NCBI GenBank assembly: GCA_964016885.1
Contig: OZ024743.1
Span: 270,878,001 to 270,942,000, forward strand
Direction of reading: 5' to 3'
DNA from: Eledone cirrhosa
Lineage: Eukaryota
Length of the DNA stretch: 64,000 nucleotides
Shown: piece by piece, positions 34,440 to 39,400 of the stretch
How the letters are laid out: each line of letters begins with the position of its first letter
Numbering within the stretch: position 1 is the stretch's first letter
Program-made: the position numbers and the translations under genes
Notes under the pieces: generated by a model
What the model was told of the DNA's origin: nothing
Database searches by the model: none
What the model saw: the letters and a program-made list of their open reading frames with translations, nothing else

Positions 34440-35040
34440 ATATATATATATATATATATACAGTATATATATGTATATGTATATATATATATATATATAT
34501 ATATATATACGTGTGTACATATATATAGTTGTGTATATATATATATATGTATGTGTGTGTATATATATATATATATATATATATATGTGTGTGTGTGTGT
34601 GTGTGTGTGTATCATCTATATCTATGTATTATCAGACTAAAATTTCTTTAGTCAGAAAATACGGTGAAACTATTCTATTTTCTAATTTCAAACCTGCTCA
34701 CTGTTTCAAAACATATTTACTTATATATATATACACACACACACACATACACATACACACACACACACACACACATATATATATATATATATATATATAT
34801 ATATATATATATATATATATATATATATATATATATATATATATATTCAGGTTTGAGGTTCACCACTGTATAGAGCTGGTCTATTCCGTATGGTCAATCG
34901 TAATGCAATAATATAGAGAGTACTCAACGTAAGGCAGTTCAACCGTCTTTGTTTTTGTAGTTGGTGGTGCTATTACGGAGTTAAATATTATAATGAAATG
35001 ACAGGAGGCTGGATTTGTGTAAATCCTTGAAAGGTTTATT

Positions 35041-35098
35041 ATACTATGATCATTTCAATGACCGGGTTCCGTATGAATCCGGTGATATCATCAGGTAT
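35041..35098 (-). ncRNA. Type I minimal hammerhead ribozyme (inverted arm copy)
   Basis: Exact reverse complement of 37446-37503. Confidence 0.7.
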
Positions 35099-37445
35099 TC
35101 GAAATATAATACGTGAATGCAATAGATAAAATCGATGGGGCTGAAAATCGAGGACCCGAGGGCGACCGCTATTCTGTTCCTTCAACCTCAGCCGGTCGCC
35201 CTGGAGTGACGTGGCTACCGTTTATAGTATGCTACTACCGGTCAGATAAACGAAAACAGAAAGGGATGGGAACATAAGTTAACGTCAATCTCATGACACA
35301 AGGTAAAAGAAAGAAAGAAAGGAAGGAGAGAGAAGAAGGGGGAAGAAAGAAGAGAAGCCAGGGTTAATGTCAGCTAAAAGAAGAAAGGCAACTACTACCG
35401 GTCAGATATAGGCAAGCAAGAGGGGGAAGGAAGATAAGTCTGCGGGAGGAAGACAGGAAGAGGGGAGAAGAGAAGGGAGAGAATAGAGAAGTAGAAAAGT
35501 AAGGGTTGATGCACCCTTAGCACACGACACAGGATCCCCCCCCCCCCGGAACATAAATACTGCAACCTGAACTATATTGTAATTCTCCTATGTCTTGATT
35601 TCTCCATCTTACTCCAACACCACTCTTGTTGGTTTATTTACATATGTATACCTATATAGTGATATGTTTATATATTTATACCTCTGCTGTACCAATGTGC
35701 TCTTCCACGTATTCCACTTCTATGTATCCATGTATTTCTACTCCTCACATTGGGACTTGTACCCATTAGCACACGACACTAGAATGTCTCCTCCTGAGAA
35801 CAAAAATAAATATTACCCGACTATATCCCGTACTCTACATCCCACTAGGATAAATTACAGATCTACATAATACAATTAACGTTTCTTCATAAAAGACTCT
35901 ATTTAATTAAACCCCGCAACCCAAAACCTCATAGAAGTTATTTGAATGTTTAATCTTCAATTTTCTGTTTGTTCAATTCTCAATCTTCTTACTCCTTAGT
36001 TTTATAATGTTATTCTGAATTCTTTCAACTTCATCCGATAGAGTTAAGCAAAATTCTAAAGTTCCAACTTTCTGTCGGACTGTTGGGTGGGTTTTAATGG
36101 CGGCGCGACCAGCTCCCTGGCGAACGAGTTCACCTGGAGTGCTTGGAAAAATAAATTTCCCCTTCTTTCGGTAAATGAAAATACTCGGCGTGGCTTAATT
36201 CGCCATGGGGCTCGGGGCGCGGCCGGTGTTTTAACCGCCATATAGTACCTTTAAATTACAGAACAAATCGGAACTATTAGATATATCAACCTGAAAGTGT
36301 TAAACTGTTGAACTTTAAATTTTCTAACCTCTTTAATATTGAATATTGATTATTAATTTTTTAACTTCATCCTATAAGTCTAAACATTGTAACACACTGA
36401 CCCCCAATATATTCACCTCTGCTAAGATGCGGGTCCCTGTGAAAATTTTCTCACGCCACTCCTGGCCCGACTGTGGTGTGACATTAATATCGACCTTTCT
36501 TCCTCTCTCTTTCTATCTTCCTTCTTGTAGCCATCAACCATTACTCTTCTAAGCAAAATTTTAAAGTTCCAACTTTCTGTCGGACTGTTGGGTGGGTTTT
36601 AATGGCGGCGCGACCAGCTCCCTGGCGAACGAGCTCACCTGGAGTGCTTGGAAAAATAAATTTCCCCTTCTTTCGGTAAATGAAAATACTCGGCGTAGCT
36701 TAATTCGCCATGGGGCCCGAGGCGCGGCCGGTGTTTTAACCGCCACATAGTTCCTTTAAATTACAGAACAAATCGGAACTATTATATAATAAAATGTTAA
36801 ACTGTTGAACTTTAAATTTTCTAACCTCTTTAATATTGAATATTGATTATTAATTTTTTTAACTTCATCCTAGAAGTCTAAACACTCTAACACACTGACT
36901 CCCAATATATTCACCTCTGCTAAGATGCGGGTCCCTGTGAAAATTTTCTCGCGCCACTCCTGGCCTGACTGTGGTTTGACATTAATATCGACCTTTCTTC
37001 CTCTTTCTTTCTATCTTCCTTCTTGTAGCCATCAACCCTTACTTTTCTACTTCTCTCTTCTCTTCCTTCTCTTCTCCCCTCTTCCTGTCTTCCTCCCGCA
37101 GACTTATCTTCCTTCCCCCTCTTGCTTGCCTATATCTGACCGGTAATAGTTGCCTTTCTTCTTTTAGCTGACATTAACCCTGGCTTCTCTTCTTCTTTCT
37201 TCCCCCTTCTTCTCTCTCCTTCCTTTCTTTCTTTCTTTTACCTTGTGTCATGAGATTGACGTTAACTTATGTTCCCATCCCTTTCTGTTTTCGTTTATCT
37301 GACTGGTAGTAGCATACTATAAACTGTAGCCACGTCACTCCAGGGCGACCGGCTGAGGTTGAAGGAACAGAATAGCGGTCGCCCTCGGGTCCTCGATTTT
37401 CAGCCCCGTGGATTTTATCTATTGCATTCACGTATTATATTTCGA

Positions 37446-37503
37446 ATACCTGATGATATCACCGGATTCATACGGAACCCGGTCATTGAAATGATCATAG
37501 TAT
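37446..37503 (+). ncRNA. Type I minimal hammerhead ribozyme
   Basis: ATAC-CTGATGA-[TATCACCGGATTC..GAACCCGGTCATT]-GAA-ATGATCAT-A-GTAT; palindromic stem III; predicted cut after A37499; AATAAA immediately downstream. Confidence 0.72.
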
Positions 37504-37777
37504 AATAAACCTTTCAAGGATTTACACAAATCCAGCCTCCTGTCATTTCATTATATATATATATATATATATATATATATATATATATATATATATATAT
37601 ATATATATATATATATATATATATATTGTTATACTTTAGGAGGGTCATGTTGCCAAAGTATAACAATATCGGTTTCAACACACGTTTTCAGATAAAGAAT
37701 CTTGCTAAACAAATTCAGAAACGAAATATATATACATATATACATATATATATATATATATATATATATATATATAC

Positions 37778-38110
37778 GATATTAACAAATGGAAACTATA
37801 TTTATAAAACCATATTTATTTCATTATACATATTTCAAGGACACCAAGTTAAATTATGGAGTGCTTTCATCAGACAAAATATAATATAGATCAGTTTTAT
37901 AAATAAATATTGACATACCCTTAAAAAATGCAACCACTACTGTTGGAAGCTCCCGGATAGTGGAGTTGTTTACTTATATTATTATTAGTATTGGATATTT
38001 TTATTTTTAAAATAAGCCGTATGTTTACTCCAAATACTTGTTGAGTGTTTTATATCAGTTATAAAAATATTTGGTTGTTGTATCCCAACAATTTAAATAG
38101 AACTTTTGCA
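37778..38110. mobile_element. Naiad-type pLTR fragment: inverted HHR part plus forward tail
   Basis: Shares ATATTAA.AAATGGAAACTATATTTATAAAACCATATTTATT with 39185, 48138 and 60301; 38017-38110 is inverted relative to 39091-39185. Confidence 0.75.
37818..37880 (-). ncRNA. Type I hammerhead ribozyme
   Basis: Minus strand: ATTTTGT-CTGATGA-[AAGCACTCCA..TGGTGTCCTT]-GAA-ATATGTAT-A-ATGAAAT. Confidence 0.7.
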
Positions 38111-38338
38111 TATATATATATATATATATATATATATATATATATATATATATATATATATATATATATATATATATATATATATATATATATATATATA
38201 TATATATATATACATATATATATATATATATATATATGGAATCCAGTCCTCGATAGCTGTTCCAGTTGCCGAATTATTATTATTTTTATATGAGTCCTCA
38301 GTGTCCGCGCATCGCCTGGAGACTCGGCTGAGAATGAC

Positions 38339-38418
38339 CTCCCTGATGACGCAATGAAATTCTCAACAGTTCATTACGTAACTGTCTTTATCCCATTGCA
38401 GAAACTAATTAGTTGGAG
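38339..38418 (+). ncRNA. Type I hammerhead ribozyme, copy 1
   Basis: CTCC-CTGATGA-C[GCAATG...CATTGC]A-GAA-ACTAATTAGT-T-GGAG; palindromic stem III; GUU site; C/A mismatch at the base of stem II. Confidence 0.65.
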
Positions 38419-38894
38419 TGAAAATTTAAGTAAGTAAGTTAATTTTTTTGAAAAAGATTTTTTTAAGAAATTTTCTTATTTTACGTCTTATATATTATTG
38501 TTCTGCATTCTCCTGCATTGAACCACCTAGGTACTATGACATAACCTGTGTATTTGCTGGCATTAGCGTACATCTGTGCGCTTATGTTAGTAGATATATT
38601 AAATTATCTATATTTATCTCCAAATCACTGATTTGTCGAGCAAACCTGCTAAAACCACTTCTAAATTTTTTGGGGGGTGTTAGTAGGCGTCTGTCATCTT
38701 ACCATCCCATTCCTACTGACTAGTCTCTGTGTCACGTGATTGATTCTTTAGAATCGGCCATATGATCAGTGGCAGTGAGAATTTTCAGTGGCTGGAATCC
38801 AGTCCTCGATAGTTGTTCCAGTTGCCGAATTATTATTATTTTTATATTAGTCCCCAGTGTCCGCGCATCGCCTGGAGACTCGGCTGAGAATGAC

Positions 38895-38974
38895 CTCCCT
38901 GATGACGCAATGAAATTCTGAACAGTTCATTACGTAACTGTCTTTATCCCATTGCAGAAACTAATTAGTTGGAG
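38895..38974 (+). ncRNA. Type I hammerhead ribozyme, copy 2
   Basis: Same core as 38339-38418. Confidence 0.65.
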
Positions 38975-39090
38975 TGAAAATTTAAGTAAGTAAGTTAATT
39001 TTTTTGAAAAAAATTTTTTTAAGAGATTTTCTTATTTTACGTCTTATATATATATATATATATATATATATATATATATATATATATATA

Positions 39091-39400
39091 TGCAAAAGTT
39101 CTATTTAAAGTTGTTGGGATACAACAAGTAAATATTTTTATAACTGATATAAAGCACTCGACAAGTTTTTGGAGTAGATATACGATATTAATAAATGGAA
39201 ACTATATTTATAAAACCATATTTATTTCATTATACATATTTCAGGGATACCATATTAAATTATGGTATGCCTTCATCAGACAAAATACAATATATAACAG
39301 TTTTACAAATAGCTTTGACGTACCCTTTTAAAATACAACCATTCCTTTTGGAGGCTGTCTGGATAGTGATTTGTTTATATTGTTTTAATAAGTCATAGTG
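39091..39400 (-). mobile_element. Naiad-type solo pLTR with HHR (39224-39286)
   Basis: Minus strand: ATTTTGT-CTGATGA-[AGGCATACCATA..TATGGTATCCCT]-GAA-ATATGTAT-A-ATGAAAT; colinear with 60204-60474; the 3' tail abuts (TA)n. Confidence 0.78.

Follow-up and report, generated by a model that had tools for sequence, protein, structure and literature searches.

The window analysed here is a 64,000-nucleotide stretch of the Eledone cirrhosa genome (assembly GCA_964016885.1, contig OZ024743.1, positions 270,878,001 to 270,942,000 of the forward strand). Our subject is the segment at 34847-39460 of this window, which contains six hammerhead ribozyme motifs in repeats related to Penelope-like elements (PLEs). 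The segment holds five separate insertions with (TA)n tracts between them (34775-34846, 37552-37626, 37726-37776, 38110-38237 and 39045-39091), four of which carry hammerheads. The four belong to three families, here called A, B and C: a single family A insertion at 34847-37552, two family B insertions, B1 at 37769-38109 and B2 at 39092-39460 (minus strand), and a family C insertion at 38238-39051 (plus strand). The fifth, which has no hammerhead, is a 100-bp combination of an inverted short end and a long end at 37627-37726; it belongs to a PLE family outside the Hydra clade that is related to the element at 30653-34230 of the window. We found no reverse transcriptase (RT) coding sequence inside the ribozyme span. 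A first-pass annotation of this DNA had described (TA)n-linked elements without RT coding sequence, and both parts of that description were confirmed.

We searched for hammerheads using a descriptor of the form CUGAUGA-stem II-GAA-palindromic stem III-H-stem I, with a stem II of up to 60 nt. All six places named by the first-pass annotation fitted this type I descriptor, and 500 dinucleotide shuffles of 34847-39460 contained no motif in 496 cases and one motif in the other four. The family A motifs, A1 (35041-35098, minus strand) and A2 (37446-37503, plus strand), have stem III AUGAUCAU, with cleavage predicted after AUA at 35045 and after 37499, respectively. The B1 (37817-37881) and B2 (39223-39287) motifs, both on the minus strand, have stem III AUAUGUAU and predicted cleavage after 37825 and 39231, respectively. 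The plus-strand motifs C1 (38339-38418) and C2 (38895-38974) have a 51-nt stem II and stem III ACUAAUUAGU, with cleavage predicted after GUU at 38414 and after 38970, respectively; a reading of the family C hammerhead as a broken core was ruled out once the stem II limit had been raised from 40 to 60 nt. The core CUGANGA and GAAA, an NUH site and stems I and II were present in 6 out of 6 motifs, the cleavage triplet being AUA in four and GUU in two. In family A, stem I is only 4 bp long and the base of stem II has a mismatch. The self-duplex energies of stem III, whose palindrome would allow dimers, were -7.2 kcal/mol for A, -9.0 for C and a weak -2.2 for B. The four insertions contribute the six motifs as three pairs. 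One A insertion supplies A1 from its inverted pseudo-long terminal repeat (pseudo-LTR) and A2 from its 3' end, and one C insertion supplies C1 and C2 from two tandem units; B1 and B2, which are 86% alike, come from separate insertions.

For the B group, we collected 22 variants by BLAST rather than by the descriptor and dropped three truncated or chimeric rows. Among the remaining 19 variants, 93.2% of pair cells were paired, and two-sided changes occurred at 8 out of 21 pairs. None of 500 shuffles matched the paired percentage or the covariation score and 33 matched the pair count, in tests that are inflated by kinship among the variants; structures slid along the same alignment were only 34-59% paired. 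Taken together, these results support the six folds as minimal hammerheads of type I, of the sort known from PLEs and retrozymes, with palindromic stem III, as the first-pass annotation had it, with covariation in the B group. The Rfam search proposed there was of no help: at E<=10, we obtained 11 matches in 34850-39450, none of them to a hammerhead model, and 497 in the whole window, the 150 listed ones being microsatellite-driven and mostly to miRNA models. Self-cleavage by these six motifs is uncertain. Minimal PLE hammerheads are described as having low cleavage activity or as needing protein (PMC4209133; PMC11167929), and 1 out of 9 Xenopus retrozyme dimers was reported to cleave (bioRxiv 10.64898/2026.07.22.740005).

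In the family A insertion, the 3'-terminal 670 bp appear as an inverted copy (34847-35511, minus strand; unit positions 2236-2905), whose long 3' end abuts (TA)n, joined to a 5'-truncated, non-coding body (35510-37552, plus strand) that starts at unit position 708 and stops at the short 3' end. The inverted pseudo-LTR copy is 97.9% identical to the 2905-bp unit from locus L095. Complete A units of this length occur in tandem in loci L094 and L095 and contain internal duplications; the 505-bp duplication at 36045-37049 belongs to the family unit. The longest stop-free frame of the unit is 99 aa, and none of seven PLE protein queries matched it (best E 0.65). The motif that follows the long end has 130 exact matches, and we surveyed the first 30 of these, which comprised 20 A-type and 10 B-type junctions. 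An open reading frame (ORF) of more than 58 aa from the first ATG was opened at 0 out of 20 A-type junctions, 19 out of 20 running on into A-like sequence that was 75-96% alike; the B-type junctions (10 out of 10) continued into the B 5' region. Between the 3' ends of A and B, only the short motif after the A long end was near-identical, matching the B 5' untranslated region (UTR). Judged by its sequence, with pseudo-LTRs, tandem and inverted insertions and no ORF, A is classed as a non-autonomous PLE.

A search for an autonomous partner of A through an 84% relative returned 25 loci, mostly inverted mini-insertions of ~310 bp, and no such partner. In L169, a Hydra-like ORF lies near this relative, but a TA tract stands between the two and the ORF is followed by a tail of its own. 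We also observed an A-related subfamily (~85%) in L144-L168, which occurs largely as ~310-bp insertions, each combining an inverted short end with the long tail.

Family B is coding. B2 comprises the last 379 nt of a 4204-bp unit, with the long 3' end abutting (TA)n, and is 95.5% identical to the unit from L091. B1 is a truncated inverted Hydra-type 3' end, 85-91% identical to the B unit and derived from a sister subfamily; it consists of a short end with the hammerhead (37769-37984, minus strand) and a long tail (38018-38109, plus strand). The tandem 4204-bp unit encodes an RT and a C-terminal endonuclease (EN), and L264 carries an intact 735-aa RT/GIY-YIG ORF (3841-6045, minus strand) with a B hammerhead on either side. 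The atlas neighbours of this ORF are eukaryotic clusters, some with GIY-YIG or RVT_1. By eye, it shows the Hydra signatures RWR (for RWK), DKT, CNCRNKSNC, CDLC and CRH and no CCHH; the C-terminal EN and the Hydra-type motifs ruled out an assignment to Naiad. On motifs read by eye against the published definition, B is placed as a new, young member of the Hydra clade, and B1 and B2 are identified as truncated 3' ends of this coding element. Of the three non-coding families that the first-pass annotation had listed, A and C are therefore non-coding and multi-copy as stated, and the third was misassigned.

Three further observations concern family B. At L266:6327 onward, a B 5' end reads in frame into a Neptune-like EN fragment, an apparent PLE chimera. 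The 3' UTR of the B copy in L091 contains one copy of a ~190-bp SINE-like repeat. Within the window, a 310-bp palindromic mini-insertion at 46978-47288 carries inverted B-group hammerheads (47086, minus; 47193, plus).

The family C insertion contains 1.46 head-to-tail units of a 556-bp non-coding repeat (longest frame 97 aa) and stops at the short 3' end. Elsewhere in the genome, C occurs as anything from dimers to arrays of ~19 units, in which an inverted copy lies at the 5' side and TA follows the 3' end, and CUGAUGA was kept in 48 out of 49 sampled C motifs. C1 and C2 together are predicted to release a 556-nt monomer. This length lies outside the 150-450 bp of the 2020 definition of retrozymes and within the 51-972 bp of a 2026 preprint, and by the latter definition C is classed, from DNA alone, as a non-LTR retrozyme. 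A sister retrozyme-like family in L173-L202, 72-80% identical to C, has a ~525-bp unit with compensatory stem II changes and a UUCG-capped inner hairpin. Through this 72-80% relative, L197/L203 was considered as a coding parent of C and rejected as a unique chimera: in L203:5361-7538, a 1.75-kb fragment of a Hydra-like ORF meets the last 430 bp of a C relative's 3' end at a 4-nt microhomology; the chimera lies between TA tracts, and the rest of the ORF does not reappear downstream. The other listed copies of the L203 ORF lose the match at the chimera joint (39 out of 39). A template switch is a possible origin of this joint.

Families A, B and C are young, because their closest copies among the best-scoring loci are 97-99% identical. 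Exact genome matches to hammerhead-spanning patterns numbered 4,519 for A and close relatives, 4,248 for C and 57,753 for the B group; the reversed patterns gave 0, 0 and 5, respectively. We surveyed 3' ends in the best-scoring loci (28 A, 29 B and 28 C, the C loci overlapping within one array). A perfect TA run lay no more than 12 nt from 88 out of 93 distinct terminal 3' ends, as against 5.8% of random positions, which bears out the repeated (TA)n targeting proposed in the first-pass annotation. The five misses were one read-through copy that had diverged and four ends whose TA or TC runs were imperfect. Each family proved to have two alternative 3' ends, located 53 or 198 nt past the cleavage site in A, 48 or 139 nt in B and 74 or 190 nt in C; for the two end types, the TA-flanked fractions were 12/14 and 19/19 in A, 9/10 and 26/26 in B, and 12/12 and 10/12 in C. 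The sequence between the two ends, ~91 nt in B, 116 nt in C and 145 nt in A, corresponds to the PLE 'tail', for which 30-40 bp has been given (PMC8557442). In the Poseidon element PAc, the tail was mapped to two internal RT start sites, and the hammerhead is reported to be protein-assisted and dispensable in vitro (PMC11167929).

We found the same hairpin motif 8-13 nt beyond each of the two ends in the A, B and C units. It opens with four bases, the last two being TC, and continues with a stem, a loop 4-40 nt long, the complementary stem strand and a 2-nt bulge whose first base is T; GA and two further pairing bases close it. In the segment, the hairpin follows the A short end at 34922-34981 (minus; ACTC...TT-GAGT), where only long-ended copies keep it, the C short end at 38500-38523 (plus; GTTC...TT-GAAC), the C long end at 38617-38641 (plus; CTC...TC-GAG) and the B short end at 39156-39175 (minus; ACTC...TC-GAGT); in the B1 tail, it was read from the sequence at 38027-38046 (plus). 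A strict descriptor was satisfied at 4 out of 6 ends (A short, B short, C short and C long). What is new here is this combination of two alternative 3' ends per family, each followed by one shared bulged-hairpin motif.

We then looked beyond the three families; forty evenly spaced 10-kb stretches from six contigs of the 3.0-Gb genome served as control DNA. A hairpin 45-95 nt past the cut was present in 16 out of 36 long-tailed hammerhead-linked families, against 0.92 expected from shuffles; these counts, like those of the anchored sites that follow, include related families and are not independent, and at least two of the 16 look like chance matches. At 34 sequence-anchored sites in the control DNA, inner pairs 1-3 formed in 30, 27 and 23 cases, compared with 25, 23 and 13 when partners were shuffled; inner position 4 showed no excess (15 paired versus 16 shuffled). 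A reversed anchor found 8 anchors versus 36. Two more Hydra-like coding families (L118 and L169) show the hairpin by sequence pattern or by eye, and the strict descriptor in the 45-95 nt window found it in 0 out of 2 of the L118 type. In the non-Hydra family of the element at 30653, the hairpin was absent after 13 out of 13 hammerhead cores (2 out of 15 copies had no core), and families with an ACTAGT stem had it in 0 out of 10, 0 out of 5 and 0 out of 4 cases. Among published elements (PMC8557442 supplement), we saw the hairpin by eye after the hammerheads of Hydra-2_Amil from coral and Hydra-2_Ajap from sea cucumber, and twice in tandem upstream of the Hydra-1_Ajap ATG. The main text of that paper has no passage on a 'hairpin' or 'bulge', and a literature search found no description of the motif, although most subscription papers, Repbase entries and figures lay outside this search and absence from print is not established.

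The first-pass annotation had called the segment a hotspot, which overstated its status. In the control stretches, we counted 35 hammerhead motifs (shuffled 0-2), or one per 11.4 kb. Extrapolation gives a genome load of ~260,000 hammerheads (bootstrap 157,000-374,000), which is a lower bound because one abundant non-Hydra type escapes the descriptor. The B group provides a check on this figure, its 8 matches per 400 kb predicting ~60,000 versus 57,753 counted. For the axolotl, whose genome is much larger, 'up to 120,000' retrozyme copies have been reported (PMC7229834), a number below this load, with descriptors that differ between the two counts. Six motifs in 4.6 kb compare with 0.4 expected from the background density. 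Among the 40 control stretches, however, one held five motifs in 4.3 kb and three held three. Hammerheads of other families numbered 7 in 92 kb in the flanks of A loci, 18 in 95 kb for B loci and 14 in 94 kb for C-relative loci, against 8.75 per 100 kb in control DNA, and local clustering is therefore at most about twofold. Since motifs arrive in pairs and a similar cluster occurs in the control, the segment is the upper tail of nested insertion and ordinary in this genome.

Nor do proteins encoded nearby, to which the first-pass annotation had attributed mobilization, appear to drive these families. Both PLE ORFs of the window make unlikely drivers: the nearest one (30653-33640) is frameshifted, looks non-Hydra by eye and belongs to a family whose tails lack the hairpin, and in the Hydra-like copy (60256-62152) the coding sequence is broken up among several frames. 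Pfam matches among 11 window ORFs were confined to GIY-YIG, zf-RVT and RVT_1, in 3 out of 11. Overall, the picture drawn by the first-pass annotation was mostly known biology, and the paired hairpin is what adds novelty.

Our favoured reading, which we consider probable, is that the segment represents five stacked PLE-type insertions in (TA)n, with A and C likely copied in trans by a Hydra-type RT/endonuclease through the shared bulged RNA hairpin. A Hydra-type protein made from intact copies elsewhere would nick (TA)n with its GIY-YIG domain, grip the RNA at the hairpin and prime cDNA just 5' of it; with starts at that position, either hairpin could define an end. Use of both start sites in one event would give an inverted pseudo-LTR with the 'tail' at one end only. 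A and C, retaining hammerhead and hairpins, would ride in trans. Each insertion would leave (TA)n on its flank, so that later elements adjoin earlier ones; PLEs are said in a review to tend to land beside existing copies (PMC6765202). As dimers, the hammerheads would trim multimeric transcripts to unit length, and B2 and B1 could pair, while A1 and A2 have no same-strand dimer partner within the span. The hammerheads do not define the insert ends, because these lie downstream of the cut. We infer these steps by analogy with the in vitro work on PAc; anatomy, copy number, TA targeting, ends and motif were observed. The hairpin is likely to be an RT-initiation signal common to driver and passengers. 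On a bolder version, to which we give an even chance, the RYTC-stem-loop-stem-2-nt bulge-GARY hairpin, whose conservation reaches the Hydra PLEs of coral and sea cucumber, is the address in the RNA that sets the two internal RT starts, and the non-coding retrozymes kept it in order to hitchhike. If true, this would identify what drives an animal retrozyme and which cis element the retrozyme uses.

Several findings weigh against this reading. The family searches, each scoring the best 40 of ~1,800 candidates, found no coding parent that shares body sequence with A or C. The hairpin was first noticed in A, B and C, so the descriptor is fitted to them. At the A long and B long ends, the motif is near-identical in sequence and fails the strict form of the descriptor through one inner mismatch. 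It is missing in 20 of the 36 families, including a few B-like and A-like single copies, in addition to the lack of independence noted above. By eye, it is not evident in the published 5' end of Hydra-1_Obim, and Hydra-1_Crog from a copepod has a variant form only (PMC8557442 supplement). The compensatory-change test covers the B group only, A and C copies being too alike, and the L203 chimera could alternatively reflect a later deletion.

Other explanations account for parts of these data. With the anatomy as described, the hairpin could be a DNA signal, at which EN cuts donor or cDNA at resolution, or the C arrays could have grown mainly by unequal crossing-over as a satellite, in which case the RNA-recognition step would not hold; we regard this pair of options as unlikely. 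The tail has been ascribed to EN-mediated resolution (PMC8557442), the D. virilis tail is reported to be required for EN recognition of DNA (PMC11167929), and the 2026 preprint permits local tandem amplification of retrozymes (bioRxiv 10.64898/2026.07.22.740005). Yet the inner stems change sequence and keep pairing, G-U included, which suits single-stranded RNA, and the two PAc ends map to RT start sites on RNA (PMC11167929). A satellite origin sits poorly with the PLE-type inversion, two fixed ends and TA flanks that C insertions show at dispersed sites.

A still less probable view, raised in the first-pass annotation together with insertion at random sites, is that every copy, including those of A and C, is an ordinary truncated end of an autonomous PLE with an unsampled coding parent. 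B1 and B2 are truncated ends of this kind, and the limited depth of the family searches leaves room for such parents. By contrast, complete units of A (2905 bp) and C (556 bp, ~19 in tandem) lack coding sequence, none of the 20 A junctions reaches an RT ORF across subfamilies 75-96% alike, and the sole C-like end found behind an ORF is the unique L203 chimera. We give very little credence to a host-selected ribozyme cassette that cuts read-through transcripts into defined pieces. The motif count is far above the expected 0.4 and motifs lie on both strands, but the cluster is young, its copies being 98-99% identical to dispersed members, the insertion mechanism itself would yield motif pairs, a five-motif cluster turned up in 1 out of 40 control stretches, and A1 and A2 combine a 4-bp stem I with the missing same-strand partner.

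The three families can be set beside several known systems. The Hydra clade has been recorded from Octopus bimaculoides (Hydra-1_Obim), with a (TA)n preference (Craig et al. 2021, PMC8557442). As described there, its members share with B a single ORF with RT and C-terminal GIY-YIG, a CxCX5C linker, CxxC/CxH and no CCHH, a pseudo-LTR hammerhead, the (TA)n target (35 out of 36 ends in B), tandem and inverted insertions, and a tail. They are generally <3 kb, whereas B has a 4.2-kb unit with a 1.8-kb 3' UTR; the tails of A, B and C are longer than those described, and B is set apart as young, with an intact copy and ~58,000 exact hammerhead-end matches. For the non-coding PLEs of Chlamys such as MRC1 (PMC8557442), the likeness to A lies in pseudo-LTRs and head-to-tail copies; A differs in its animal host, its hammerheads and a 2.9-kb unit with internal duplications and, set against MRC1, what A has in common with B amounts to short motifs and does not extend to the sequence of the 3' end. 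PAc (Poseidon, Anolis; Frangieh et al. 2024, PMC11167929) likewise has two ends with the tail between them downstream of the hammerhead, and an AT-rich target. It is of a different clade from B, and its reverse transcription begins within the ORF, in an AC-rich stem-loop, whereas both ends here lie upstream of the ATG, each before a bulged hairpin.

Metazoan non-LTR retrozymes (Cervera and de la Pena 2020, PMC7229834; Li, Clavereau and Pollet 2026, bioRxiv 10.64898/2026.07.22.740005) resemble C as non-coding, low-GC tandem repeats with type I hammerheads in their units, dispersed and multimeric, in a PLE-rich genome. C differs from them in its PLE-type 51-nt stem II, inversion, two fixed ends and TA target. 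PLE-driven mobility of retrozymes was proposed in both papers; in the preprint, the link consists of co-occurrence and pseudo-LTR similarity, to which C adds a candidate cis signal with a named driver clade. How a PLE RT picks internal starts and whether PLEs move animal retrozymes are questions open in this literature (PMC11167929; PMC7229834; bioRxiv 10.64898/2026.07.22.740005). Both could be tested in one in vitro assay, because this genome has a young intact Hydra element, two abundant passengers, exact end maps and a candidate signal of 20-60 nt. A repeat annotation of O. vulgaris reports recently active Penelope-like families and, in the parts covered, no ribozymes (PMC13282606), and our literature search found no paper dedicated to octopus hammerhead ribozymes.

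Other elements were observed in the window and at another locus. At 60185-63420 lies a broken Hydra-like PLE, ~70% identical to B, with RT/EN over several frames, an inverted pseudo-LTR hammerhead at 60393 (minus) and a truncated one at 63352 (plus). The frameshifted non-Hydra PLE at 30653-34230, with a relative at 25390, has an EN linker spacing that looks Nematis-like by eye, a hammerhead core at 34042 that is more minimal still, a TA target and two ends without the bulged hairpin. Nested inverted repeats at 63489-63746 and L169:880-1130 derive from the tail of a further Hydra-like family. The copy in L169 folds like a hammerhead, its stem III being long and its core one base short, and the bulged hairpin follows. 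Fragments that look Neptune-like by eye (4494-6023, minus; 6159; 6850; 49592-50551, minus) have tandem pseudo-LTR hammerheads, and their stem III, ACUAGU, is the commonest single hammerhead type in control DNA. LINE-type RT fragments lie at 81-782 (plus) and 54864-56790 (minus), the latter with Pfam RVT_1 and zf-RVT. The ~190-bp SINE-like repeat is abundant, occurring at 34236-34409 and in at least ten other places (9291, 10684, 19323, 42503, 43110 and 59123 among them). The window also contains a short (AACCCT)n telomere-like array (19553-19647), a 1.8-kb TA-rich tract (28655-30435) and a 3-kb minisatellite of 26/60-bp repeats (11917-15089).

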